From Bacilli bacterium (GTDB taxonomy: Bacteria; Bacillota_I; Bacilli_A; RF39; UBA660), in NCBI GenBank assembly GCA_017527675.1, contig JAFXPU010000023.1, forward strand, positions 6,052-38,051: a stretch of DNA of 32,000 nt, in the 5' to 3' direction. The notes under the pieces are model-generated. The model was not told the DNA's origin. It did not search any database and was given only the letters and a program-made list of their open reading frames with translations. Shown here in pieces: positions 14,817 through 32,000 of this stretch (its first letter is position 1; each line of letters opens with the position of its first letter). Both the position numbers and the translations under genes were made by a program.

Positions 14817-15209
14817 ATGAAAAATAGAAGTGAACTATTAAAAGAGTATTTAAAAGCTAATGTAGTACCAGTATTAGTTGATTATGTTTTTGGAGAAGAT
14901 TTATATGATGCCGTTGTTATACCAGCTGATATTAAGAAAGAAGAATTAACTGGCCATTATGAAGGAGAGAATTATTTACCACCAAAGTGGTATAGTGCAT
15001 GTGCTGATACAGTAGAAGGAGATATTTTAATTATTGATCGTATTGATACTATTCCTAAAGAAGAACAATTAAAATTTGTTGAGTTACTTGAGTACCGTAA
15101 AGTATCAACATTTGAACTTCCAAGTAATACGGTTGTTATGGTAACTGCCAATAAAATTAGTAAGGATACTATTCATGAAGAAATATTATCATTAGTAGCA
15201 ATTGTTTAA
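14817..15209 (+). CDS. Small degenerate AAA-core-like protein (no Walker A; DR in place of the Walker B DE)
   Basis: 130 aa with its own TGATATAAT promoter, AAGGAG SD and terminator. PPKWY..GDILIIDRIDTIP..LPSNTVVMVTANK aligns by eye with KPAWL..LHILFFDEISNALP..LPANARIVAAGNE of the ATPase at 26995-29007. Confidence 0.5.
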   Translation: MKNRSELLKEYLKANVVPVLVDYVFGEDLYDAVVIPADIKKEELTGHYEGENYLPPKWYSACADTVEGDILIIDRIDTIPKEEQLKFVELLEYRKVSTFELPSNTVVMVTANKISKDTIHEEILSLVAIV

Positions 15210-15321: not shown

Positions 15322-17142
15322 ATGAAAAAAATTAACTTTAAACTAATATTTAATATATTAATTCCACTTATATTATTATTAGTTTTTGAAAATAGTTTTT
15401 TAATGTTTTCAAAAACAATGGTATTATCATTATTATTAATATATACTATATATATCTTTTTAGCAGTTTTATTTAAAAATACAAAATGGGCTACTTTAAT
15501 ACTAAGTATAGTTGAGGTAATTATTCTATTTGTATCAAAGATGAAATTAGCAATATCTTATGAACCAATGTTTTTTACAGATGTTATATATGTACAAGAT
15601 GCAGGAGAGATAAATAGTATAGTTGATGGTATTTTTATGGATACTTTGTTTAAATTAATGCCATTTTTTGTAATATCATTAATTATAATAGTTTCTACAA
15701 ATATTTTTAGTTTTAAATATAATTATAAATTTGAAAATCAAAATAAGCGTATGATGATAGCTTGTTTTAGTTATATTATATTATTAATTATGTTTTTACC
15801 AATTGAGTCAATTAATAAATATGTTTTAAATACTTTCTTTGATGCTAATGCTAAAACAAATGAAATTGGTATTAAAAATGGTGTTGAAGCATGTGATAGA
15901 TATGGCCATTTAGCTGCTATATATGGTGACTTATTAGATAGTCGTTTATATAGATATAAACCGGATATTTATGATGAGAAAAAGATTGAAAAAACTTTAT
16001 CTTCTGCTGAAAAATTAGATGATACATCTTTAGGTAAACCAAATATTATAGTCATTTTTTCTGAATCATTCTGGGATATTGATCAAGTAAAGGAAATTGA
16101 GTTTGATAAAGAAATAACCCCAAACTTTAATAGATTAAAAGAAGAAGGATTATTCTTTAATATGATATCTCCATCATTTGGTGGTAATTCAGCAAATGTA
16201 GAATTTGAATTTTTAACAGGTGGATCACTTGCTTATTTTTCTCGCTCTTATGTTGCTTATATGGGACTATATAATAATAAAAAATATAATAATTCACCAA
16301 GCATATTAAGAGATTTAGATAAGGCAGGTTATTATATTAAACTACTTCCATTTTCAACACCAGCCTTATTTAGATGTGGTGAAGTATATAAATACTTTCC
16401 AATAGATGAAGTAGAGTTTTTACCAAAAGTATCTAAAAAGCATACAAAGGGTATTTATCCATCAGATGAATATGCTATGGATAAAGCAATTGAAGCTTTA
16501 GAAAATAAAGAAGAGGGTAGACCACTATTCTATATGACAATGACTATGGAAGCTCATATGCCATTTGTTGATGATAAGTTTGATAAATATGATATTAAAG
16601 TTACTAAAAGTGATTTAGATCCTAAAACAACTAATCAAGCTAAAGTATATGCTCAAGGTGTATATGATGCAGATAGACAATTAGCAAGATTATATGAATA
16701 TGTTAAAACTTTTGATGAACCAACTATTATAGTATTCTATGGTGATCATTTGCCATTCATTGAAGCAATAGATAAATGGAAATTCTTTAATACTAAAGAT
16801 GAAAAATTAAATTACTATAGAAGATATAATACTCAAAGTTTAATACTTGCTAACTTTGATATTAGTAATTTAAAAGAAGAAAATAAAACTGAATTGCAAT
16901 ATTTAGGACCTGATTTATTATCTTCATATATTTTAAATCATATGGATATTGAAATATCTGATTATTATAAATGGTTATATTCAACAAGAAATACAACTGC
17001 TGCATTTAATAGATTTGTGTCAGTTGACCAAAAGGGTAACATTTCTTATACTAAAAATTTAAATAAAGATATGCAAGATTTATATGATTTGCGCAAAATG
17101 ATTCAATATAAATATTTTGTTGATTTAAATTTAAAAAAGTAG
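15322..17142 (+). CDS. LTA synthase family / sulfatase-fold phosphoglycerol transferase-like membrane enzyme
   Basis: About 5 N-terminal TM helices, then an extracytoplasmic sulfatase-like domain (PNIIVIFSESFWD, GGNSANVEFEFLTG, FYGDHLP). ATG 15322 after GGGAG preferred over TTG 15304. Confidence 0.8.
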   Translation: MKKINFKLIFNILIPLILLLVFENSFLMFSKTMVLSLLLIYTIYIFLAVLFKNTKWATLILSIVEVIILFVSKMKLAISYEPMFFTDVIYVQDAGEINSIVDGIFMDTLFKLMPFFVISLIIIVSTNIFSFKYNYKFENQNKRMMIACFSYIILLIMFLPIESINKYVLNTFFDANAKTNEIGIKNGVEACDRYGHLAAIYGDLLDSRLYRYKPDIYDEKKIEKTLSSAEKLDDTSLGKPNIIVIFSESFWDIDQVKEIEFDKEITPNFNRLKEEGLFFNMISPSFGGNSANVEFEFLTGGSLAYFSRSYVAYMGLYNNKKYNNSPSILRDLDKAGYYIKLLPFSTPALFRCGEVYKYFPIDEVEFLPKVSKKHTKGIYPSDEYAMDKAIEALENKEEGRPLFYMTMTMEAHMPFVDDKFDKYDIKVTKSDLDPKTTNQAKVYAQGVYDADRQLARLYEYVKTFDEPTIIVFYGDHLPFIEAIDKWKFFNTKDEKLNYYRRYNTQSLILANFDISNLKEENKTELQYLGPDLLSSYILNHMDIEISDYYKWLYSTRNTTAAFNRFVSVDQKGNISYTKNLNKDMQDLYDLRKMIQYKYFVDLNLKK

Positions 17143-17162
17143 GTAAATAATCTACTTTTTTT
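17135..17162 (+). terminator. Hairpin plus T-run overlapping the stop of the LtaS-like gene
   Basis: AAAAGTAG / CTACTTTT stem, 9-nt loop, T-run. The next gene starts 13 nt later, so this may be only a partial terminator. Confidence 0.45.
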
Positions 17163-17174
17163 GAAAGGAGAAAT

Positions 17175-17828
17175 ATGACAACGGTATATTTAATTAGACA
17201 TTCAGTAAGAATGAAAAATAATTTAATTGAAAGTTATAATACTCATCAAGATAAGACTATTCAAAATGAAAAAGTAATATTAAGTGTATTAGGAGAAAGA
17301 AGAGCTGAAATACTAGCTAATGAAGAAGAACTTCAAAATATCGATGTTGTTTATACTAGTAGTTCAGTTAGAACACTTGAGACTGCTAAATATTTAATTG
17401 AAAAACAAAATTTAAAAGTTAATATAGATGAAAGACTAAATGAGCGAGTAGCTGGTATCCCAAATGAAAATGAAGTTGTCGATTGGAAAAAACAATATGA
17501 AGATCCAACATACAAAACTACTAATGGGGAATCTCAATTAGATGTGAGAAAACGTTTTGAAGAATCTTTTAATGAAATTATTAAAAATAATAAAGATAAA
17601 CGTATTGCTATTTTTTCTCATGGTTATGCTATTACATTTTTTTTACTTAAATATTGTAAATTATTACCATTTAAAGATGATAAATTAAATTATGAATATA
17701 ATGGTAAAATATTATTTAATAAAACTATAAATGCTCCAGAAGTATTTAAGATGATAATTGATGGTGATAATGTTATAGATATTGAATTAATTGAATTTGC
17801 TGATTTACCATTTGAATTTGGAGTTTAA
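17175..17828 (+). CDS. Histidine phosphatase family protein (phosphoglycerate mutase-like)
   Basis: N-terminal VYLIRHS catalytic RH motif and a downstream FSHGYAI His motif. SD AAAGGAG. Confidence 0.75.
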   Translation: MTTVYLIRHSVRMKNNLIESYNTHQDKTIQNEKVILSVLGERRAEILANEEELQNIDVVYTSSSVRTLETAKYLIEKQNLKVNIDERLNERVAGIPNENEVVDWKKQYEDPTYKTTNGESQLDVRKRFEESFNEIIKNNKDKRIAIFSHGYAITFFLLKYCKLLPFKDDKLNYEYNGKILFNKTINAPEVFKMIIDGDNVIDIELIEFADLPFEFGV

Positions 17829-18018: not shown

Positions 18019-20490
18019 ATGAAAATAATTTTAAAACACATTTTAAGAAATTTAAAGGAACATAAGATGCGTGCTTTTTTAATATTCTTTTCATTACTAG
18101 TATCTACTTCGGTATTTGTTATTAGTTTAACAATTTCAGATGACTTAACTATAAAAGTAGAAGATACATTAAGAAGTGTATATGGAAATGCTGAAGTACA
18201 AGTTGCAACTGTTGATCCATTTAAACTAGATGATTTAAAAATGAATAAGGATAAATATTCATATTTAGGTATGAGTAGTTTAGATGGTGTAGATGCAAAA
18301 GAAAAACCAATATCTATTTTAGGTATGGATATTGAAAAAGCAGTTGATTTTAAATTACTTGGTAATGATGCTAAAAAACTTGCTTTAAATGAAATATATA
18401 TTAATAAAAATTTAGAGGATAAAGGTTATAAAAAAGGTCAAGTAATAAAATTAAAGTATGAAGATAAAGAATATAATTTAACTATAAAAGGTGTAATAGA
18501 AAATAAAGGTATTGCTTCTATAAGACCAGATGATGATACATTCTTTGCATCAATTGAGACAGTAAATTCTATTAAAAATATAGAAGATGGTAACTACGAC
18601 ACTATTTATTTTGATCTTAAGAATAATAATAAAATAGGTGAATTTGTTGATTATATAAAAGATCATAATGATAATTATATGGTTGCTAAAACAGTTGATA
18701 TGGAATCAATTAAAGAAGCAACAAGTATGATTAGTACTATTATGTATTTAATATTATTAATGGCAACTATCATGATTTATTTTGTTATTAGTTCATTAAA
18801 TAAAATAATCTTAGCAGAGCGTATACCAGTTATTGGAACTTTTAGATCAGTTGGGGCATCAAGAACTAAGATGAATTTAATATTAGTTTTAGAAAATGCT
18901 TTATATGGAATATTTGCTGGTTTATTTGGAGCTATTATCGGAACATATTTAGATAGTTACTGTTCATCAGTATTTATTACAGCTGATGGTATAGACGTTG
19001 CTAAATCATCTGTATCTCTTTCAGTGGGTACAATATTAATTGGTATTTTATTTGCTACATTATTACAAATTATTATTGTTGTTAAAGAAATAATAAGAAC
19101 TAATAAAAAACCAATTAAAGATTTAATATTTAATACCCAAAATTCAAGATATAAAATGCGCAAAAAAAGAACTGTAATTGGATTTATCTTATTAATATCA
19201 TCAATTATATTATTTGTGTTAATTAAAAATATAGATATGTTAACTATAGGTGTTTTACTAATATGCTTTATAGTAGGTGTTGCTAATACACTTCCTTTAA
19301 TATTCCAATTAATATCAAAATGCCTTGCCTATATATTTAAAAAGATAGGTTGGTCTACTGGTATTATTACTTCCAAAAATATTGGCTATAATAAAATGAT
19401 TATCTCATCATCACGTTTAGTTGTTATAGCTATATCACTTTTATCATCAATTATTCTGATGTCAAAAGCAACTGCTGATTGTTTTACAGGTTTTAGAGAA
19501 GTAACTAAAAATGTAGATTTAATGATATCTAATCCACATAAATCATCAGAGGAATATGATTATTTAAATGATATAGATGGTGTTAAGGAAGTGCAATTTT
19601 TAAATAGCTATTTTGCTGATGATATAACATATACTAAGGGTAAAAATAAAAATAAAAAATTCAATCTTCCTCCAGGTTTCTATGCTGAAAAGGAAAGAAA
19701 AAATGTTTATATTGAAGAAATAGATTATAAAATAAGTGATCTTAAAGATGATGAAATCTTATTTGACGAAAAATATGCTTTTAAAAATAATATTAAAAAA
19801 GGTGACAAAATAACAATGCATTTTGGAACACTTAAAAAATCATATACTTATACTGTAAAAGGATTTGTTAATGCATCCAACTTTAATGTATCAAGAAATA
19901 TGGTAGTAGTATCATACAATCATTTAATAAATGATTTAAATGGTATTCCAATGCAATTACATATTGTCTTAGATAAAGGGTACGATCCAGATGAGATGAA
20001 AGATGTTGTACATGATGCTATGAAAGAAGTAGGCATTTATGTACAAACAACAGAAGAATATATTTCTGAACAAGAAGGCCAAGTAGCAGGTATAATTGCT
20101 ATTGTATATTTAGTAATTGGTATATCAGTAACCCTTGCATTTATAGGTATTTTAAATAATCAAGTAATTGGTTTTATTAATAGACGCAAAGAAATAGCAA
20201 TTTTAAATTCTACATGCATGAATAAAACCCAAATAAAGAAGATGCTTGCTTTAGAAACAATTTTATCTAATTTCATTTCATTATTTATTGCTACAATTGT
20301 TTCATTTATAACAACAATTTTTGTAAATAATTTTATGATGAATATAGGACTTTATTTAAATATTAAATATGATTTTATGACTGTATTTAAGTTTGAATTA
20401 ATTGTATACATATTACTATTGTTAACATTATTTGTACCATTTAGAAAATTAAAAAAGATGAACATCGTTGATGAAATAAAATATGAATAG
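18019..20490 (+). CDS. ABC transporter permease, double FtsX-domain (MacB-like) type
   Basis: 823 aa. Two TM clusters, each preceded by a large soluble domain. FtsX-like loops ERIPVIGTFRSVGASRTKM and RRKEIAILNSTCMNKTQI. Confidence 0.85.
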   Translation: MKIILKHILRNLKEHKMRAFLIFFSLLVSTSVFVISLTISDDLTIKVEDTLRSVYGNAEVQVATVDPFKLDDLKMNKDKYSYLGMSSLDGVDAKEKPISILGMDIEKAVDFKLLGNDAKKLALNEIYINKNLEDKGYKKGQVIKLKYEDKEYNLTIKGVIENKGIASIRPDDDTFFASIETVNSIKNIEDGNYDTIYFDLKNNNKIGEFVDYIKDHNDNYMVAKTVDMESIKEATSMISTIMYLILLMATIMIYFVISSLNKIILAERIPVIGTFRSVGASRTKMNLILVLENALYGIFAGLFGAIIGTYLDSYCSSVFITADGIDVAKSSVSLSVGTILIGILFATLLQIIIVVKEIIRTNKKPIKDLIFNTQNSRYKMRKKRTVIGFILLISSIILFVLIKNIDMLTIGVLLICFIVGVANTLPLIFQLISKCLAYIFKKIGWSTGIITSKNIGYNKMIISSSRLVVIAISLLSSIILMSKATADCFTGFREVTKNVDLMISNPHKSSEEYDYLNDIDGVKEVQFLNSYFADDITYTKGKNKNKKFNLPPGFYAEKERKNVYIEEIDYKISDLKDDEILFDEKYAFKNNIKKGDKITMHFGTLKKSYTYTVKGFVNASNFNVSRNMVVVSYNHLINDLNGIPMQLHIVLDKGYDPDEMKDVVHDAMKEVGIYVQTTEEYISEQEGQVAGIIAIVYLVIGISVTLAFIGILNNQVIGFINRRKEIAILNSTCMNKTQIKKMLALETILSNFISLFIATIVSFITTIFVNNFMMNIGLYLNIKYDFMTVFKFELIVYILLLLTLFVPFRKLKKMNIVDEIKYE

Positions 20491-20499
20491 GAGGATTAT

Positions 20500-21168
20500 A
20501 TGAGTATTATTAAAATAGATAAATTAGTTAAAAACTTCGGTAAGGGAGAAAACGAAGTAAAAGTATTAAAAGGATTAAACTTTGAAATTGAAAAAGGTGA
20601 ATTCGTATCATTAATGGGTGCATCAGGTTCTGGTAAATCGACTTTACTATATTTAATAGGCGGACTAGATAAACCAACATCAGGTACTGTTTATATTAAT
20701 GATAAAGATATAAATACCTTAAAAGAAAAAGAGATGGCTAAATTAAGAAGAAAAGATATTGGATTTGTATTTCAATTCTATAATTTGGTTCAAAATTTAA
20801 CAGTTGAAGAAAATATTATGTTACCTGTTGTTATGGATGGAAAAAAAGAAAAAGACTATAAAGATAGATTAGATAAAATATTATCAATTATAGGCTTATC
20901 TGATAAAAGAAAAAATTTACCTAATGAACTATCTGGTGGTCAACAGCAAAGAGTATCAATTGCTCGTGCGATGATCTTATCTCCAAATATTATTCTAGCT
21001 GATGAACCAATTGGTAACTTAGATTCTAAATCTGGTAAAGAAGTTATGGATTTATTTAAAAAGATTAATAAAGAAGAGGGTATTACAATATTACAAGTAA
21101 CCCACTCTGAAGAATCTGCTAAATATGGTAATCGTATTATTAGATTAAAAGATGGTGAAATAATATAA
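20500..21168 (+). CDS. ABC transporter ATP-binding protein (MacB/LolD-like)
   Basis: Walker A GASGSGKST, signature LSGGQQQRV, Walker B ILADEP. SD AGGAGG. Lies 9 nt after the permease gene. Confidence 0.92.
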   Translation: MSIIKIDKLVKNFGKGENEVKVLKGLNFEIEKGEFVSLMGASGSGKSTLLYLIGGLDKPTSGTVYINDKDINTLKEKEMAKLRRKDIGFVFQFYNLVQNLTVEENIMLPVVMDGKKEKDYKDRLDKILSIIGLSDKRKNLPNELSGGQQQRVSIARAMILSPNIILADEPIGNLDSKSGKEVMDLFKKINKEEGITILQVTHSEESAKYGNRIIRLKDGEII

Positions 21169-21170
21169 AA

Positions 21171-21196
21171 AAGATAGAAAAATCTATCTTTTTTTA
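21171..21196 (+). terminator. Rho-independent terminator after the FtsX-type ABC operon
   Basis: AAGATAGA (21171-21178) / TCTATCTT (21183-21190), loop AAAA, then a T-run. Confidence 0.7.
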
Positions 21197-21209
21197 TATT
21201 ATTCTTGTA

Positions 21210-21249
21210 AAATGTTAAATGTAGTTGACAAATTTCCAATGTTAATTGG
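21210..21249 (+). promoter_or_regulatory. Conserved element copy B upstream of the ABC-2 operon
   Basis: 31 of 40 positions identical to 17930-17969 by hand alignment, including an exact 16-mer GTTGACAAATTTCCAA (21224-21239) and the dyad CCAA-N6-TTGG (21236-21249). Confidence 0.55.
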
Positions 21250-21295
21250 TGGTGCGCAACTAAAAAAAATGCTATATTTTTAATGAGGTGAAGAA

Positions 21296-22237
21296 ATGGA
21301 AAAGGTAATAGAAGTTAAAGATTTAACTAAAGAGTATAATAAAGGTATTAAAGCCGTTGATAATTTATCATTAAATGTTTATAAGGGTGAAATATTAGGA
21401 TTACTTGGTCCTAATGGATCTGGTAAATCAACTACAATTAATTGCATCTTATCTTTATTAAATTATAGTAAAGGATCAATTAAAATATTTGGTAAGGAAA
21501 TGAATCCAAATAGTTATGATATTAAATCACAAATTGGCGTAGTATTTCAAGATGTATCTGTATTTGATGAATTAACAGTTTATGAAAACTTGGATTATTT
21601 TTGTGGTTTATATATTAAAGATAAAAAATTAAGAAAACAATATATAGAAGATGCTATTGAATTAGTAGGATTAACAGAATTTAAAAAATATTATCCAAAA
21701 CAATTATCAGGTGGTTTATTAAGAAGATTAAATATAGCTTGTGGTATAGCTCATAAACCAAAATTAATATTCTTTGATGAACCGACTGTAGCAGTTGATC
21801 CACAAAGCCGTAATAACATCTTAAATGGTATTAAAAAATTAAGAGATAATGGAGCCACTATCGTTTATACTACTCATTATATGGAAGAAGTTGAAACATT
21901 GTGTGATCGTATTATTATCTTAGATAAAGGAAATATTTTAGCAAGAGGTACTTCTGATGAATTAAAAGAATTAGCTGAGATAGAAGAAAAGATTACTGTT
22001 GAAGTCAATAACTTGGATGTTAAATATATTGAAAAAATATCTGAATTAAAAAATGTTGATGTTGTTACTTATAGTGCTAATACCTTATTAATAACTTATA
22101 AAAAAGGCAAAAATAATATTTCTGATATGGTAGAGTTTTTAAAGAATAATAAAATTAAATATAATAAAATATTCTCTGAACGTCCAACTCTAAATGATGT
22201 GTTCTTGGAATTAACTGGTAAGGAATTAAGAGATTAA
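21296..22237 (+). CDS. ABC transporter ATP-binding protein (ABC-2/DrrA-like subfamily)
   Basis: Walker A GPNGSGKST, signature LSGGLLRR, Walker B LIFFDEPT. About 90-aa C-terminal extension. Confidence 0.9.
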   Translation: MEKVIEVKDLTKEYNKGIKAVDNLSLNVYKGEILGLLGPNGSGKSTTINCILSLLNYSKGSIKIFGKEMNPNSYDIKSQIGVVFQDVSVFDELTVYENLDYFCGLYIKDKKLRKQYIEDAIELVGLTEFKKYYPKQLSGGLLRRLNIACGIAHKPKLIFFDEPTVAVDPQSRNNILNGIKKLRDNGATIVYTTHYMEEVETLCDRIIILDKGNILARGTSDELKELAEIEEKITVEVNNLDVKYIEKISELKNVDVVTYSANTLLITYKKGKNNISDMVEFLKNNKIKYNKIFSERPTLNDVFLELTGKELRD

Positions 22238-25673: not shown

Positions 25674-25688
25674 TTTCTTCTATTTTTT
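25651..25688. terminator. Bidirectional terminator spanning the stop codons of two convergent genes
   Basis: TAGAGGAAAT (25658-25667) / ATTTCTTCTA (25673-25682), 10 bp with one G-T pair. A-run upstream, T-run downstream. Confidence 0.55.
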
Positions 25689-26858
25689 ATATAAAATATC
25701 AATATCAACAGTATTCTCAGTTATACCATCAATTTTACCTTCATCAGTCATTTGCCATAACATATAATCACCTTGGTAAGTTGTTTGATCAATATAATGA
25801 GCAAGCCAAATATTAGCATCGCCATAATTGGACCAAACATTTTCTAAATAAAATTTAGAAGAATATAGCATAGCATCATAGCCACCATCTTTCAAAGTTT
25901 TAGCAAAAGCTTTATAGTTTTCACCTAAAGTATGAAGTGACATATGATAAGAATTAAAATCCGTCCAATCCTCAAAATCATAACCAATTGGTAAATCTAG
26001 TTTATCACCATTTAGATTATCAATAATCCACTTAGCAGCTTTTTTAGCACCTTCGGGTGTAGAAGCATTAGTATAAACATAAACAGATACATCTAAACCA
26101 ACTTCTTTAGCTTGTTTATAGTATTCATCAAATTTCATATCCTTTTCATAATTATCATTAGCATCTTTTTGATAACCCATGCGCATTATGACAAATTCAA
26201 TTCCTGCATCTTTTACTTTTTTAAAATCAATATTACCTTGCCATCTTGATACATCTATACCAATAGATGTATTTTCATTTTTATAACTTTTTAAATCATC
26301 CATATAAACATAATTATGTACTCTTGGTTTAGAAGAAGGTAGTTCCTCTAAGACATTTAAATAACTATGATCATAATTTTCATTACCAGATGAATCTTTA
26401 ATAGTTATATCAAATTCATAAGTACCAATTTGATTTAAATTATAATCACCCGTAATTTCACAAGTAGGATTTTCGTCATAATTATCAGCAAATTGAATAC
26501 GTTCACATAAAATAACATCATCACCAATAGAAACATTTATATTCATAGGACTATAAATAAATATAGGTGGTATATCATCAATTACTTCATAAGTTAAATC
26601 ATATTTATATTTATTATCATTATATTTAAATTCTAAAGTATAGTCATGTTTACCAATAGTATCAGTATCAATTGTTTCATCATTTAATATTTCAATATCT
26701 TTATTCTTTATTAATTCCTTAGTTTGATGCTCTTCAAATACCTTAAATTGGTTTTCATTTAATTCAATTTTTACTTCATTAGGTATTATATATGGATCTA
26801 TTTTTTTACCACATCCAACTATAAGTAATAATAAAAAAAGTATATATATTTTCTTCAT
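25680..26858 (-). CDS. Lipoprotein GH25 muramidase (lysozyme) with N-terminal Ig-like (DUF5011-like) modules
   Basis: Signal peptide with lipobox LLIVGC. GIDVSRWQGNIDFKKVKDAGIEFVIMRMGY and C-terminal VDIDILY are typical of GH25. Ig-like repeats (..IGTYEFDITIKDSSGNE). Confidence 0.85.
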   Translation of the reverse strand: MKKIYILFLLLLIVGCGKKIDPYIIPNEVKIELNENQFKVFEEHQTKELIKNKDIEILNDETIDTDTIGKHDYTLEFKYNDNKYKYDLTYEVIDDIPPIFIYSPMNINVSIGDDVILCERIQFADNYDENPTCEITGDYNLNQIGTYEFDITIKDSSGNENYDHSYLNVLEELPSSKPRVHNYVYMDDLKSYKNENTSIGIDVSRWQGNIDFKKVKDAGIEFVIMRMGYQKDANDNYEKDMKFDEYYKQAKEVGLDVSVYVYTNASTPEGAKKAAKWIIDNLNGDKLDLPIGYDFEDWTDFNSYHMSLHTLGENYKAFAKTLKDGGYDAMLYSSKFYLENVWSNYGDANIWLAHYIDQTTYQGDYMLWQMTDEGKIDGITENTVDIDILYKK

Positions 26859-26945: not shown

Positions 26946-26975
26946 TTGATAAATAAGTGTGAAAAATGATAAAAT
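26946..26975 (+). promoter_or_regulatory. Putative promoter TTGATA-18-TGaTAAAAT of the ATPase/VWA operon
   Basis: -35 at 26946-26951 and extended -10 at 26967-26975, in the divergent intergenic region next to the GH25 gene. Confidence 0.45.
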
Positions 26976-26994: not shown

Positions 26995-29007
26995 ATGACA
27001 TATCTATCAGCAAAATACGGATTAATGAATAAAAAAAGTATATTTGGATTACACAAGAGTACCATTTTTAAAGGAGCTTATCATGCTGAAGCACGTCTAA
27101 CGGATTTTGCATTTGCTTTAGCTAAAGATACTAGTGGTTACCTTCATGAAAATAGTTGGATAATTATCAATGCTTCTTATCCAGGTTGTCATAAGGGCTC
27201 TGGTGATGTCATTGATAAAAATGGAAGACCTATTTTAATCTTTGATGCCAAAAATCAAATAGACAATAGTCATGGTATTAGACCAGCTATGTGTGTTGAT
27301 GAGGAAAATATAAAATTAATAAAATGTTTACCAAGTTTTATAGTTAATCAAATACCTGATGATCCTGAATATGGTAAAGTTGCAACATTTGAGTATGGAG
27401 AATATCCACAAACTATAGTTGAAGATGAACAGATTGAATTAGAAGAACAATTTCAAAATGGGAAAGTTGTAAAAACGAGAAAGGTATATTCAATTAATAG
27501 TCCTTTTGATGGCGATGGTAATCCTAATACTGATTATTCTCCAATATTTGTTAATGAATATTTCTATCAAGGAAAAAAATATGTCAGATTAGAGATACAA
27601 ACTTTAGATCATGATAGCATAGTTAAACTAATAGATGAAAAAATATGCAAAAAAAATGGTAATGTTGTATGGGTTCGTGTAGAACCTATTAAATGGCTAA
27701 TGGATTTAGAAAATAATATTATTATTTCAAAAGAAATATTAACAAGAGGAATTTCGTATCATAAGTATCCTGTTAAACCAGGCTCTTCTGAGTATGAATA
27801 CTATGAAAATACAAAAATATGTTATTTTTTTAAAAAATATTTTGCAAGTGAAATAATACCAAGTAATGTAAGTAAATTAATTAATAGTAATAATACTATT
27901 CAAAGTAATAGTAGTAATGCAAATACTAGTGCCAGTGTTAGTACTAATGATGAAGTAGGAGGAATTAATATGGCAAATAATGAAGAAGAAAAAAAGGTTA
28001 AAGAAGAAGAGTATAATCCATATGGATTAGATTTTAAGGAAGTATCAGAAGAAGAATTGATTAGAAATGCTGTTAAATCAGGTATATCAGTATTTTTACA
28101 TGGTAAATCATCAGATGGAAAAAGTGCCCGTGTAAAACAAATAGATCCTGATTGTGTCATTCTATATTTAAGAAATGAAACACCAGAAACTTTAACTGGT
28201 AAAAGTGTTTATAATGCTGATTTAGATAAGATGATTGATATTAAACCAGCTTGGTTAGTTAAATTGGAAGAAAAATGTGCAAAAGAACCAGATAAATTAC
28301 ATATTTTATTCTTTGATGAAATATCTAATGCTTTACCAACTGTTCAATCTGCAGCATTTAATATAGTTTTAGATGGTGAAGTAAATGGTAAATGGAAATT
28401 ACCAGCTAATGCTCGTATAGTAGCTGCTGGAAATGAAATTGCTGATTCTTTGGCAGCTAATCAAATTGCTGAACCATTATTCAATCGTTTTGCACATGTT
28501 TATATTAAAACATCTGTAGAAAAATGGTTAGCATGGGCAGAAAAAAGTGGTGTTATTCATCCAGCAATCTATGATTTTATAGCTTGTTATGGGGAAGCGG
28601 TTTTAAGAACTGAGTTTAATGAGAAAACATTAAATGCCGATCCAAGAAAATGGGAAATGGCATCAAGAATGTTAAATGAAACACATAATCCAAGTACAAT
28701 AACATCATTAGTCGGTGAGGAAATAACTAATAAATTTGTTGATTTCTGTACAATGGAAGTTATAGCCTTAGAAGATGTTATATCAGGTGAATGTGATATT
28801 GATCCAGATAATATTAGTAAAAAAGTTATATATGCTTCATTAATGAATTTATCTCAAGTTGATGAACAAAACTTAGAAACCGTAAGAGAATTCGTTAAAC
28901 AATTAGGTGAAGAATATGTATCAACATTTGATGCTTTATGGACTTATGGAGATAAAAAGAAAATAGAAATAATTGATAATTTAAAAAATAAAGATATGCA
29001 AAAATAA
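26995..29007 (+). CDS. AAA+ ATPase (MoxR/AAA_5-like core) with an N-terminal non-ATPase domain of about 340 aa
   Basis: Walker A GKSSDGKS (28102-28125), Walker B ILFFDE (28303-28320), sensor-1-like IVAAGNE, PLFNRF. N-domain motifs HGIRPAM, EYGEYPQ and VEPIKWL resemble the DUF6273-type pattern (from memory). ATG 26995 chosen because a TTGATA-18-TGaTAAAAT promoter (26946-26975) overlaps the upstream candidate starts. Confidence 0.8.
   Translation: MTYLSAKYGLMNKKSIFGLHKSTIFKGAYHAEARLTDFAFALAKDTSGYLHENSWIIINASYPGCHKGSGDVIDKNGRPILIFDAKNQIDNSHGIRPAMCVDEENIKLIKCLPSFIVNQIPDDPEYGKVATFEYGEYPQTIVEDEQIELEEQFQNGKVVKTRKVYSINSPFDGDGNPNTDYSPIFVNEYFYQGKKYVRLEIQTLDHDSIVKLIDEKICKKNGNVVWVRVEPIKWLMDLENNIIISKEILTRGISYHKYPVKPGSSEYEYYENTKICYFFKKYFASEIIPSNVSKLINSNNTIQSNSSNANTSASVSTNDEVGGINMANNEEEKKVKEEEYNPYGLDFKEVSEEELIRNAVKSGISVFLHGKSSDGKSARVKQIDPDCVILYLRNETPETLTGKSVYNADLDKMIDIKPAWLVKLEEKCAKEPDKLHILFFDEISNALPTVQSAAFNIVLDGEVNGKWKLPANARIVAAGNEIADSLAANQIAEPLFNRFAHVYIKTSVEKWLAWAEKSGVIHPAIYDFIACYGEAVLRTEFNEKTLNADPRKWEMASRMLNETHNPSTITSLVGEEITNKFVDFCTMEVIALEDVISGECDIDPDNISKKVIYASLMNLSQVDEQNLETVREFVKQLGEEYVSTFDALWTYGDKKKIEIIDNLKNKDMQK
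28090..28404 (+). repeat. ATPase-core segment duplicated at 31686-32000
   Basis: Gap-free 105-codon alignment with 85 identical residues by hand count. Long near-identical nucleotide runs around Walker A. Confidence 0.85.
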
Positions 29008-29033: not shown

Positions 29034-30668
29034 ATGTATAATATAGACAGTTTAAAAAGAAAAATGTTGGTTAAATATCCCTTTTTTGGTAGTGTTGTTG
29101 TAAATGTTAAATATCAAGAAACTAAAGAAGTAGATACAGCATGTACAGATGGTAAAATTATTTACTATAATCCTGAATTTTTAAATTCATTATCATTAGA
29201 AGAGCAAATGTTTTTACTTGCTCATGAAGTATGTCATATAGCCTTTAATCATATTTTAAGAAGTGAAGGAAAGGATGCAAGATTATGGAATATAGCAACC
29301 GATGCTGTTATTAATCAGTTTTTGATGCGTGATGGTTTAAAAATGGTTGAAGGTGGAGTAGATATAGCTGAGGCTATTAACTATGATGCTGAGCAATTAT
29401 ATGAAAAATTATTAAAAGAGCAACAAGAAAAACAACAACAACAGCAACAAAATGGAAATGGTCAAGATCAACAAAAACAAGATGGTCAAGGACAAAGCGG
29501 TAATCAAGGTCAAGATGGTCAAAACCAAGGTGATCAACAAAATGAACAAGGTGAAGATGGTAAGAATCAAGAGGGAGAACAAAATAAACAAGGTGGTCAA
29601 GATCAGCAAAATGAACAAAGTAAGTCTGATCAGGTTCAAAGTAAACAACAAGGTAGTCAAGGACAAAGTGGCCAAGAAGGTAATCAGGAACAATCTCAAA
29701 ATGAAAATAGTCAAGGTGAAAATTCTACAGGTGGCGGTTCTGGATCTGAAGCAGGTAGTGCAAGTGGATCTGGAAATAGTGAAGATGAGATGGATGACCA
29801 AACTAAAAATGATGTTGGACATGATACTCATAAGATGTGGAAAGAAGCTGTAAAAAAACATAATGAGGAATTAAAGAATGCTCAAGAAAATAATAGTACA
29901 GTAGCAACAGACGAAAATGATAAAAAATCTTTTGAAGAAAAACAAAGAGAAAAAAAATTACAACATAAACAAGAAGAAATAGCTGAAAATGGTGAAAAAG
30001 AAGCTTTCAAAAAGAATAGCGAAACCAAAAAATCAATGTTTGAAGAATTAAAAGATGAACTTGCTAATCAAGCCACGTCACCAGCTGGAACAAAATCAAA
30101 AGGTGAAACTAGAAAAGTTGATGATTTAAGTACTAAAGGTTATACTCAATTAATTGATTGGCGTTATATACTAAGAGAAGCAATTCAAAGAAATGCTGAT
30201 TGGTCATATAAGAATGCGGAAATTGAAGATGGTGTTGTTTCTCCAAGATTAGAAGAATTACCAGCACCAGAAACAGAAATAGTATTAGATACTTCTGGTT
30301 CTATTTCAGATACACTTCTAAGAAATTTCTTAAGAGAATGTAAAGTTATTTTTCAAACATCAAATGTTAAGGTTGGATGTTTTGATACAAAGTTTTATGG
30401 TTTTGAAAATATAAGAACTGAAGAAGATATCGATAAAATGGAATTTAAAGGTGGCGGTGGAACTGATTTTAGGGCTGCTATTGGTGCCTTCACTGGCCGT
30501 ACAGAAAATAAAATAATATTTACTGATGGTCAAGCACCAATGCCTGATAAAGCAGTAAATGCCATCTGGGTTGTTTTTGGTGGTACTCAAATTAAACCAA
30601 AAGGAGGGCAAGTTATTGCCATAACTTCAGAACAATTAGAAAAATTAAAGGGTGGAAGAACAAGATAA
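29034..30668 (+). CDS. Putative metallopeptidase-like (DUF2201_N-type) plus VWA-like (DUF2201-type) protein with a long Q/G/N/E/K-rich insert
   Basis: YPFFGS..ACTDGKIIYYNPEF..LLAHEVCHIAFNH..WNIATDAVIN (HEVCH at 29223-29237). C-terminal MIDAS-like DTSGS (30288-30302), GGGGTDF and IIFTDGQ. SD GAGGTGA. Lies 26 nt after the upstream gene. Confidence 0.8.
   Translation: MYNIDSLKRKMLVKYPFFGSVVVNVKYQETKEVDTACTDGKIIYYNPEFLNSLSLEEQMFLLAHEVCHIAFNHILRSEGKDARLWNIATDAVINQFLMRDGLKMVEGGVDIAEAINYDAEQLYEKLLKEQQEKQQQQQQNGNGQDQQKQDGQGQSGNQGQDGQNQGDQQNEQGEDGKNQEGEQNKQGGQDQQNEQSKSDQVQSKQQGSQGQSGQEGNQEQSQNENSQGENSTGGGSGSEAGSASGSGNSEDEMDDQTKNDVGHDTHKMWKEAVKKHNEELKNAQENNSTVATDENDKKSFEEKQREKKLQHKQEEIAENGEKEAFKKNSETKKSMFEELKDELANQATSPAGTKSKGETRKVDDLSTKGYTQLIDWRYILREAIQRNADWSYKNAEIEDGVVSPRLEELPAPETEIVLDTSGSISDTLLRNFLRECKVIFQTSNVKVGCFDTKFYGFENIRTEEDIDKMEFKGGGGTDFRAAIGAFTGRTENKIIFTDGQAPMPDKAVNAIWVVFGGTQIKPKGGQVIAITSEQLEKLKGGRTR
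29410..29800 (+). repeat. Cryptic low-complexity CAA/GGT/GAT-rich coding repeat (Q/G/N/D/E/S-rich)
   Basis: Recurrent CAAGGT, GATGGTCAA and CAAAATGAACAA units. Three reading frames are open across it. Confidence 0.8.
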
Positions 30669-30683
30669 AAAGTTGGTGATCAA

Positions 30684-32000
30684 ATGATTGTACAAAATGG
30701 TAAAGTAACAATTTTTAATAAGGGACATTTAGGTAAACATGGTCCATTAGAAAGAATGTTTTCAGTAGAACCTATAGATAAAACTGTAACAATTTTAAAA
30801 AAACACTATGTTAGAAGGGTATGGCCAACAGATTTAGCCAAAATACTTGGAAGTTTTGACGATAAATATGAACATGCAACCTTATTAGGAGATCCATCTG
30901 CTAGTGGAAATGATCGTCCTCTCTTTAGATGTCTTGATGAAGATGGCAATGTATGCACAATTCGTAATTGTGAACATTTGGATGTAAGACCAATTATACC
31001 TGTTGATGTAACCAAGATGGATAAATCAGAATTAGAGAAGGATTCATTTGGATATATAGTAGTTGAATATGGTGAATATCCTCAATTATGTGGTAGATAT
31101 TGGTTTCATAAACATTTGGAAGCTTATTTTCAAGGTAGTGGCTGCTTTGAAACAGGTCGTTCATTTACCTTAGAAATAAAAGGTCAAAAAATAAAATTTC
31201 CTGAGTATTTTTGTTCCGTAAATGGAAAAAGATATATTCGTTTACCAATCGATTTGTTAAGAGGTAAAAACTGGATGGGTAATGGTGATATTGGTGGCGA
31301 TTCTATATATTTTAGAGATGTTGCTGATAATTTTGGAGCTTTATGGATAGAAGTTAAACCTATTGAATGGTTTCTTGATAAAAAGTCTGGATTACTAATA
31401 AGTTATCGTCCATTACTATCTGGATTTGCAAATAAGGGTTTTTATGATTTTGAAAATTCAGAAATATCTGGTTTTTTAAATAATGAATTTGTTAATGAAA
31501 TTAATGCAAAAATAGATTTTAGTAAATATAAACAAGTTACTGGTGAATCTCCTGAATTATCTAAAGAAGCAGCAGAAGAAGAAAAACGAAAATATCAATT
31601 TAAAAAAGTAAATCCATTTGGTTTTAAATTAGAACCTCAAACACAGGAGCAAACAATAGCAAGTGCTATGAAAGCAAGAGTAGCAGTATTTTTACATGGT
31701 AAGTCATCAGATGGAAAAAGTGCTCGTGTAAAACAAATTGATCCCGATTGCGAAATAGTTTATTTAAGAAATGCAACCCCCGAAAGTTTAAATGGTAAAA
31801 GTGTTTATAATGCTAAAACGGGTGAGATGAAAGATATTAAGCCAACCTGGTTAGTTAGATTAGAAGAAAAATGTGCTAAGGAACCCGATAAACTACATAT
31901 CTTATTCTTAGATGAAATAGCAAATGCCTTACCAAGTATTCAAGGAATAGCTTTCAATATAGTATTGGATAGAGAAGTAAATGGTAGATGGAAATTACCA
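30684..32000 (+). CDS. Second AAA+ ATPase paralog with a divergent N-terminal domain (3'-truncated by the window edge)
   Basis: Not in the supplied track because there is no stop in the window. My translation from ATG 30684 (SD GGTGATC) gives 439 codons with no stop. Walker A GKSSDGKS (31698-31721), Walker B ILFLDE (31899-31916). N-domain motifs DVRPIIP, EYGEYPQ and VKPIEWF. Confidence 0.8.
   Translation, partial: MIVQNGKVTIFNKGHLGKHGPLERMFSVEPIDKTVTILKKHYVRRVWPTDLAKILGSFDDKYEHATLLGDPSASGNDRPLFRCLDEDGNVCTIRNCEHLDVRPIIPVDVTKMDKSELEKDSFGYIVVEYGEYPQLCGRYWFHKHLEAYFQGSGCFETGRSFTLEIKGQKIKFPEYFCSVNGKRYIRLPIDLLRGKNWMGNGDIGGDSIYFRDVADNFGALWIEVKPIEWFLDKKSGLLISYRPLLSGFANKGFYDFENSEISGFLNNEFVNEINAKIDFSKYKQVTGESPELSKEAAEEEKRKYQFKKVNPFGFKLEPQTQEQTIASAMKARVAVFLHGKSSDGKSARVKQIDPDCEIVYLRNATPESLNGKSVYNAKTGEMKDIKPTWLVRLEEKCAKEPDKLHILFLDEIANALPSIQGIAFNIVLDREVNGRWKLP

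Follow-up and report, generated by a model that had tools for sequence, protein, structure and literature searches.

Relationship to described systems

Cytoplasmic NTPase systems varied by diversity-generating retroelements (DGRs) have been proposed as bacterial antigen sensors, with no ligand or output known for any of them. The closest described counterparts are the DGR-associated MoxR-vWA 'VMAP ternary' conflict systems (Kaur, Burroughs, Iyer & Aravind 2020, PMC7159879; Dore et al. 2024, PMC10907252), the CLec-AAA ATPase DGR targets of Candidate Phyla Radiation (CPR) bacteria (Paul et al. 2017, as cited in PMC10907252), the MoxR-VWA chaperone couples NorQ-NorD, RavA-ViaA and CbbQ-CbbO (PMC13036017, PMC9976466), and DUF6273, a domain of gut phages described as C-type-lectin-like and as targeted by DGRs (PMC10743442; bioRxiv 10.1101/2024.10.15.618418). 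Here we analyzed a 32,000-nucleotide (nt) stretch of a Bacilli bacterium (the window; positions 6052-38051 of contig JAFXPU010000023.1, here C7), in which an ATPase gene with an N-terminal "head" (A) is followed by a vWA-peptidase gene (V) and an ATPase paralog (B). This locus is probably an expanded variant, without reverse transcriptase (RT), of a DGR-targeted lectin-AAA+/vWA-peptidase cassette, and constraint and gene conversion would together explain its mosaic conservation. The window held the first three genes of the array, the last of them incomplete:

26995 to 29007, forward strand: gene A, from the open reading frame (ORF) list; head and AAA+ ATPase, 670 amino acids (aa)
29034 to 30668, forward strand: gene V; zincin-like metallopeptidase, linker and vWA domain, 544 aa
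30684 to 32000, forward strand: gene B, first 439 of 641 codons; head from 30684 to about 31600, then ATPase core to the contig end

The source genome, a metagenome-assembled genome (MAG) of 1.13 Mb in 24 contigs (26% GC, 88.6% complete), breaks inside gene B, with the final base of the window one short of the end of C7. Outside the repeated ATPase tract of B, the ~15 kb that the window shares with L001, a conspecific 52.8-kb metagenome contig, were identical, and the complete gene B was taken from this contig (L001 13690-15615). Its gene order was A-V-B-C-D, with B, C and D encoding 641, 637 and 632 aa and separated by 16-nt spacers; L002, an independent assembly, had the same array order. 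Neither tblastn nor blastn found the remainder of B, C, D or the downstream genes in the source MAG, because its contig breaks at the ATPase repeat. The 670-aa A protein (P0001) was encoded identically on seven public contigs, and an alternative GTG start at 26959 would extend it to 682 aa. V lay 27 nt downstream of A, a pairing kept in 70 of 76 related loci. By their sequences, A to D would each combine a predicted N-terminal binding head of ~300 aa with a MoxR-like AAA+ ATPase (the motor) that has intact Walker A and B motifs.

Like VMAP ternary systems, which are read as cytoplasmic sensor or conflict systems, the cassette joins a MoxR-like AAA+ ATPase to a vWA protein, peptidase activity (here predicted) and a ligand-binding domain of DGR-diversified type. 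In VMAP ternary systems, however, the varied FGS or CLec domain is fused to the vWA protein, whereas here the variable head sits on the N terminus of the ATPase; a separate VMAP protein carries the effector, whereas the third gene here encodes a dead AAA fragment of 130 aa; and the vWA protein here, unlike theirs, carries a zincin (DUF2201_N) domain. Their hosts are multicellular cyanobacteria and gammaproteobacteria rather than gut Bacilli with reduced genomes, and they come with a DGR, unlike the window. General Pfam and PADLOC scans, which used no dedicated VMAP profile, recognized no VMAP-domain effector protein among the neighbors. The CPR proteins likewise fuse a DGR-varied lectin-type domain to an AAA ATPase in host-dependent bacteria with small genomes but, as described in the citing article, they carry the variable domain at the C terminus, whereas that of the cassette is N-terminal and has its variable region ~250 nt from the start codon.

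With MoxR-VWA couples the cassette shares an adjoining vWA partner with an intact metal ion-dependent adhesion site (MIDAS), and NorQ hexamers and NorQ-NorD(VWA) complexes were the best compact fold matches of the ATPase. It differs from them in lacking sequence-level membership (AAA_5 below cut-off, no PDB sequence match) and a nearby metal-enzyme client gene, and in having a peptidase domain on the partner and a variable head on the ATPase. Both engine proteins have homologs in N4-like (Schitoviridae) phages and in phage S-TIM5 (phrog_1297 and phrog_1314), for example in Acinetobacter phage At2 at 16753-17658 and 18265-19383; the phage ATPases (~300-340 aa), however, are headless and the phage V homologs lack the low-complexity linker. 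Tentaclins (PMC10743442; bioRxiv 10.1101/2024.10.15.618418) resemble the heads in a weak Pfam similarity, a variable segment ending in G-V-R-P and its N-terminal position, but are extracellular receptor-binding proteins with Ig-like domains, whereas the domain here would lie in the cytoplasm, joined to an ATPase, with its segments in an order permuted from that of the Pfam model. Our literature search found no paper on the A/V cassette family. Particular to this locus, as read from its sequence, is an RT-less array of four heads with module-restricted concerted evolution.

Homogenized motors behind divergent heads

The heads of B, C and D were 28-36% identical in amino acid sequence, against 96.7-98.5% for their C-terminal 333 residues; the A head was ~25% identical to the other three. 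Every base of B, C and D was identical over ~645 nt (alignment columns 1059-1703), with C and D identical over ~880 nt, and upstream of the linker nucleotide identity collapsed to ~45-60%. Among the three genes, heads differed at a proportion of 0.51-0.55 of synonymous sites (pS) and motors at 0.06-0.12 (Fisher p 5e-19 to 2e-24), with corresponding synonymous divergence (dS) of 0.86-0.98 and 0.06-0.13 and a motor dN/dS of ~0.1-0.14. Since purifying selection cannot erase synonymous differences, this pattern strongly supports homogenization of the B, C and D motors by recombination between copies, that is, putative gene conversion, provided that the assemblies are correct. The alignment showed the apparent conversion to halt where homology ends, at the head/linker boundary. 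Gene conversion confined to the ATPase core had been raised as an explanation for A and B: a low-dS tract with a sharp boundary was indeed found, for B, C and D and thus beyond the window, again presupposing correct assemblies, whereas A against B showed nothing beyond constraint.

In contrast to the motors, the heads were invariant between conspecific assemblies. The whole of gene A and the first 1055 nt of B were identical, the B head matched L001 to L005 over 966-1055 nt, and all heads were the same across six assemblies (the window and L001 to L005). Differences between assemblies were confined to the repeat:

31739 to 31880, forward strand: seven synonymous differences from L001, at third codon positions within the repeated ATPase tract of B

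These seven fell within 142 nt, whereas the remaining ~14.9 kb shared by the two contigs had none (Fisher p = 6e-15), and each of the 12 positions that differed between L001 and L002 lay inside the repeated motors. Such clustering could come either from ongoing exchange among the copies or from an assembler mixing them. An assembly artefact, in which short-read assemblers thread or collapse the repeat or chain strain alleles, would fit this confinement, and would also fit the contig end inside the repeat, since four of the six assemblies of the locus (the window contig, L003, L004 and L005) break off at the ATPase repeat of B or shortly within it; four near-identical copies in the related locus L039 look suspicious as well. 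We nonetheless consider it very unlikely, as two independent assemblies agree on the gene order, with 16-nt spacers and heads that are each unique in sequence, each head is an intact ORF in frame with its motor, and comparable arrays are present in ~10 further species-level genomes, one of them a closed chromosome (L036, CP091726.1). Because the ATPase repeat breaks short-read assemblies, such arrays are probably under-represented, and likely under-counted, in short-read MAGs.

Conservation between A and B

Within the window, the original prediction had contrasted near-identical ATPase cores with strongly diverged N-terminal parts. Aligning 28090-28404 with 31686-32000 was indeed gap-free over 105 residues, of which 85 were identical, and 263 of 315 bases matched (83.5%). 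"Near-identical", however, overstated the pair, and the description of long near-identical nucleotide stretches was generous, as the longest identical runs were only 22, 20 and 17 nt. The N-terminal parts (~330 aa) were ~25% identical, and all the short islands listed for them were present in the same order in both proteins:

[GD][IV]RP island: GIRP at A residues 94-97, DVRP at B residues 100-103
EYGEYPQ island: A residues 133-139, B residues 128-134
PI[KE]W island: PIKW at A residues 231-234, PIEW at B residues 226-229
NP[YF]G[LF] island: NPYGL at A residue 341, NPFGF at B residue 310

A computed alignment (MAFFT, 30-column windows) gave amino acid identities of 18-39% up to A residue ~377 (682-aa numbering) and of 70-90% from there to the window end, with an abrupt jump just before Walker A, so divergence was not uniform along the gene. 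The overall similarity of A and B was beyond chance (BLASTP E = 1e-74).

The likeness of the two cores is nevertheless explained by constraint, because A is about as close to foreign homologs as to B. Over the 105 codons, A and B had 80% identity and a pS of 0.33, compared with 76% for the best foreign homolog and a foreign pS of at least 0.36; along the ATPase core of A, windowed identity to foreign homologs had a median of 0.6-0.8 and a maximum of 0.77-0.86, and that to B was 0.77-0.86. Family-wide constraint on the engine is thus enough for this pair, which does not appear specially homogenized, and neither the gene conversion nor the special diversifying selection proposed for it is needed. 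An old conversion tract between A and B was rejected as unnecessary, the excess of similarity being only marginal. Differential purifying selection alone, with no recombination and no special diversification, fits these A/B values, and the contrast of fast head and slow motor is family-wide. As an account of the whole locus it is unlikely: it fails for B, C and D, whose synonymous sites are identical over 645-880 nt while their heads are saturated, and for a conflict between head and motor trees in the related array L007 described below.

The head as a DGR target in relatives

More than 2,282 protein clusters matched A, and at least 226 places in species-representative genomes, nearly all uncultured gut 'Bacilli' or 'Tenericutes' MAGs of ~1 Mb, encoded a relative. 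These were found by scanning genome contigs with an alignment; a scan with the A protein alone gave none. The usual locus consisted of A, then an AAA fragment of ~131 aa without Walker A, then V. A search of the fetched loci with a DGR reverse transcriptase as query revealed an RT ORF 100-150 nt upstream of gene A in at least 17 of 76. A template repeat (TR) and variable region (VR) pair was found in 10 RT loci, with a 77-103-nt template ~220-320 nt upstream of the RT and the VR ~250 nt into gene A. In 7 of the 10 pairs, every mismatch was at a template adenine (L044, 10/10; L016, 12/12; L079, 14/14; L015, 12/12; L012, 10/10; L057, 14/14; L062, 11/11). By this signature, the head in relatives is shown to be a DGR target. 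The VR corresponded to residues ~72-107 and ended in ...G[AV]VRPAL, so that the [GD][IV]RP island noted earlier is the VR end of relatives. The equivalent segment of A is as follows:

27175 to 27309, forward strand: VR-equivalent segment of A, residues 61-105, ending in GIRP (27274-27285)

Recent in-array paralogs differed most at A residues 61-105 (0.41/0.67/0.29/0.35 per 15-aa bin), compared with mostly 0.12-0.2, and at most 0.33, elsewhere. Synonymous and non-synonymous differences were both raised 2- to 4-fold in this segment, which points to mutational input and not selection alone. Diversifying selection on the N-terminal module had been suggested; its fast evolution was borne out, and the cause is tied to the DGR rather than to demonstrated classical diversifying selection.

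The window locus itself had no RT or template beside A, and neither the genome nor the locus contained a template-like copy of the VR-equivalent segments of A to D. The pairing of TR and VR with a nearby RT that marks DGR targets in relatives is accordingly absent from the window genes. In the RP island, Arg-Pro is encoded by AGA-CCA in A, B and C and by CGC-CCA in DGR-linked loci; D has Asn-Pro. With neither RT nor template at the locus, and with heads that do not vary between samples, this lineage appears to have swapped somatic DGR hypermutation for a few germline-encoded, very divergent heads, which are carried by interchangeable motors and served by one V.

The source genome has a complete and apparently active DGR of its own outside the window (contig C8, 71366-75851):

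C8 71366 to 73516: DGR target gene, 717 aa, secreted, with an N-terminal signal or transmembrane segment
C8 73320 to 73430: VR
C8 73622 to 73732: TR
C8 74378 to 74737: avd-like ORF
C8 74715 to 75851: RT

All 13 mismatches between its TR and VR were at template adenines, and its VR segment matched positions 120-171 of the DUF6273 profile (E = 5e-4). As a diversifier of A to D it was ruled out, since its template matches none of them. In L039 (2197-11665), four ATPase copies with heads 98-100% identical stand behind an RT, and 7 of 18 TR/VR mismatches are at non-adenine positions; these copies may have been amplified very recently or may stem from misassembly.

Rates and trees across the family

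About 20 fetched loci carried two to five ATPase ORFs, a few of them single genes split by frameshift. In the in-array pairs measured, motors were 92-100% identical and heads 28, 31, 42, 64, 79, 84, 87 and 98-100%. A dS far higher in heads than in motors was also found in arrays L007, L045 and L052; in L014, L028 and L038, motor dS was instead somewhat above head dS. Family-wide dN/dS was ~0.5-0.7 for heads and ~0.1-0.2 for motors, and median terminal branches were 0.23 for the N-terminal and 0.033 for the C-terminal part. These rates show the head evolving ~7 times faster than an ATPase that, by its dN/dS, is under strong purifying selection throughout the family, in agreement with the conserved engine and fast-evolving N-terminal module that had been predicted. 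None of 40 relatives offered an orthologue for between-species dN/dS per domain, all belonging to other genera with head identities of at most 31%. After duplication, head divergence was asymmetric in L045 (8094/9914, branches 0.87 versus 0.07) and L049 (7549/9650, 0.70 versus 0.24), where one copy stays conservative and the other accelerates.

In the head tree, 10 of 12 arrays were monophyletic, the exceptions being L007 and L024. The motors of L007 are sisters (support 99) in the motor tree and the head tree disagrees, which is direct evidence for module-wise recombination. Such cases could also suggest that genes in the window locus were recently duplicated and foreign heads swapped in, with the conserved motor as homology anchor: neighboring heads in L007 and L024 come from different family clades, and motors of different species share enough sequence (65-69% aa identity) to provide a degree of homology. 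For B, C and D this head-cassette import is quite unlikely, given that their heads cluster together (99/95), that no outside head is more than ~35% identical to them, and that import would need a second, upstream crossover in non-homologous sequence. Their single head clade instead favors an old duplication in place followed by probable homogenization of the motors. The window-locus heads had the longest terminal branches in the family (2.4-3.6 versus a median of 0.23), and its motors were outliers too (A 0.97 and the B/C/D stem 0.67, versus 0.033).

The head domain

26995 to 27999, forward strand: head of A, residues 1-335; divergent, permuted DUF6273-like domain with a disordered linker at residues ~292-338

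All four heads were intact ORFs of ~300 aa, each joined in frame to a motor, and kept the invariant core residues G135, P138, W226, P231, W234 and D237. DUF6273 (PF19789) matched 17 of 92 heads of the family at E ≤ 0.01 (best 4e-7). The A head scored 17.8 bits (E = 0.003), under the 23.5-bit cut-off for membership, and the B, C and D heads gave no PF19789 match. The head family is therefore likely homologous to DUF6273, although the four heads here do not qualify on their own. The profile segments were permuted, with positions 113-171 matching residues ~52-106 (L023, P0097) and positions 5-73 matching A residues 242-310. Likeness to DUF6273 and a permuted motif order, both proposed earlier, thus hold, if weakly, and the absence of a signal peptide was confirmed. 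The N-terminal domain is best understood as a putative DGR target domain, not as a Bacillota surface-protein domain; in relatives, the DGR variable region has the [GD][IV]RP island as its constant 3' end.

An AlphaFold2 model of the A head built from 92 heads (pLDDT 78, pTM 0.80) had no Foldseek match in PDB or BFVD, so the shared known fold that might have been expected of the N-terminal domains was not recovered. Five proteins of 886-936 aa (P0050, P0049 and P0002 to P0004) carry two tandem heads before the ATPase, and residues 4-267 and 283-534 of P0050 both align to the A head; tandem heads could relate to the origin of the permuted DUF6273 order.

The motor and its partner V

28102 to 28125, forward strand: Walker A of A, GKSSDGKS
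28300 to 28320, forward strand: Walker B, HILFFDE
28420 to 28434, forward strand: sensor-1, VAAGN
28480 to 28500, forward strand: arginine motif, FNRFAHV

The columns of these motifs (28102-28500) were invariant across 34 homologs, and A residues 354-649 matched phrog_1297 'ATPase' (E = 6e-44). Neither A nor B matched a Pfam or NCBIfam family above threshold, no NCBIfam or PADLOC model matched A, B or V, and a PDB sequence profile search with the 34 homologs gave no match. Sequence membership in the MoxR family was likewise not found: A reached 16.9 bits with Sigma54_activat (cut-off 20.2) and relatives 12-16 bits with AAA_5 (cut-off 22). A full-length model of A of moderate confidence (pLDDT 66) matched NorQ, NorQ-NorD(VWA) complexes, MoxR 2r44, MCM and dynein in Foldseek (prob up to 1.0, E ~1e-4 to 1e-5); the NorQ matches (9qhg, 9qh4, 9qh6) had prob 1.0, E of 7e-5 to 3e-4 and TM scores by target of 0.36-0.38. 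Together with the intact motifs, this places the predicted motor among AAA+ folds of the helix-2-insert/pre-sensor-1 hairpin group. The name 'MoxR-like' is thus justified by the modeled fold and the vWA partner, not by membership in a sequence family.

V matched DUF2201_N (PF13203) with 133.8 bits (cut-off 23.2), DUF2201 (PF09967) with 50.6 bits (cut-off 26.4) and phrog_1314 (E = 2e-63), and had the following features:

29223 to 29237, forward strand: HEVCH motif, residues 64-68
29394 to 30230, forward strand: low-complexity insert, residues ~121-400, with ~230-280 aa between zincin and vWA domains; Q/G/N/D/E/S-rich, then K/E-rich
30288 to 30302, forward strand: DTSGS of an intact MIDAS (DTSGS...T...D)

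Headless homologs of the ATPase and of V stand close together in N4-like phages and cyanophage S-TIM5 (25-33% identity; tblastn for V). In L006, where V has 761 aa and contains internal repeats, the insert is even longer; the phage homologs (~350-380 aa) lack it. A further phage gene, L082 5373-6671, was rejected as a V homolog for lack of similarity.

Possible function and evolution of the array

By analogy with NorQ-NorD and the DGR-linked MoxR-vWA conflict systems, the head would bind a cytoplasmic ligand, the hexameric ATPase would couple to V through its vWA/MIDAS domain, and ATP hydrolysis would activate the zincin domain or feed it substrate. Four fixed heads would then give four specificities. 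Identical motors would allow B, C and D to co-assemble and share the single V, which would favor the retention of conversion events. It is possible, if doubtful, that the array is a germline repertoire in which divergent heads on conversion-identical motors form mixed hexamers with one vWA-peptidase, yielding a multi-specificity intracellular sensor-protease, and that the cassette is an undescribed system for recognizing invaders or partners. On L001, a TIR-WD40 gene and a homolog of a PADLOC candidate lie 2-3 kb downstream of the array; such neighbors give the locus the look of a defense island and lend weak contextual support to a conflict role.

Several points weigh against reading the locus as an RT-less DGR-type cassette shaped by constraint and gene conversion. 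The array and the exact motor identity rest on short-read metagenome assemblies, in which assemblers can collapse or mis-thread repeats of 650-880 nt. Arrays were not significantly associated with the absence of an RT (1/10 versus 18/49, p = 0.14). No fold match in the Foldseek searches of PDB and BFVD tied the modeled head to C-type lectins. The branches united in the B/C/D head clade are very long (2.4-3.6 changes per site), which makes long-branch attraction possible. Finally, the W.WT.S motif that precedes the VR, conserved otherwise, is missing from the heads here, and its loss would fit decay.

Decay is the core of a further explanation, under which heads have been under relaxed selection since loss of the DGR, would gradually become non-functional, and the array is a leftover rather than a repertoire. 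Besides the lost motif, this would account for the longest branches of the family, in heads and motors alike, and for the small AAA-fragment gene having moved away from its usual place. We regard such a relic as rather unlikely. Four intact heads of ~300 aa keep their core residues, the heads are identical in six assemblies, the ATPase and MIDAS motifs are intact, the B/C/D motors have a dN/dS of only ~0.1-0.14, and ~8 kb of useless genes would be unlikely to persist in a reduced genome of 1.1 Mb.

The cassette family is large and compact, with the variable head directly on the motor, and it offers a natural contrast between a single DGR-hypermutated head in some genomes and four fixed, extremely divergent heads here. 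Fixed heads would be stable reagents for a ligand search and for testing whether the ATPase drives the zincin-vWA partner. The locus would also be a clean bacterial example of concerted evolution confined to one module of a multidomain gene.

Neighboring genes

Downstream of D on L001, a region (19480-22013) absent from the source MAG encoded a 180-aa orphan, a PNPOx-like protein, a 167-aa protein, a 225-aa orphan and the TIR-WD40 protein, which has 801 aa. The 167-aa protein matched PADLOC candidate PDC-M45C (E = 1e-6) and phrog_2450. Upstream, the window contained a counterpart of the small gene that other loci carry within the cassette:

14817 to 15209, forward strand: small AAA fragment gene without Walker A, 130 aa; 50% identity to L006 11926-12321 (E = 6e-46)

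Instead of lying between A and V, it is isolated, ~12 kb upstream of the array. Directly upstream of gene A and on the opposite strand (25680-26858, reverse) is a GH25 lysozyme gene whose product has a lipoprotein-type signal peptide and a weak Rib-domain match; it occupies the place held by the DGR RT in many relatives.

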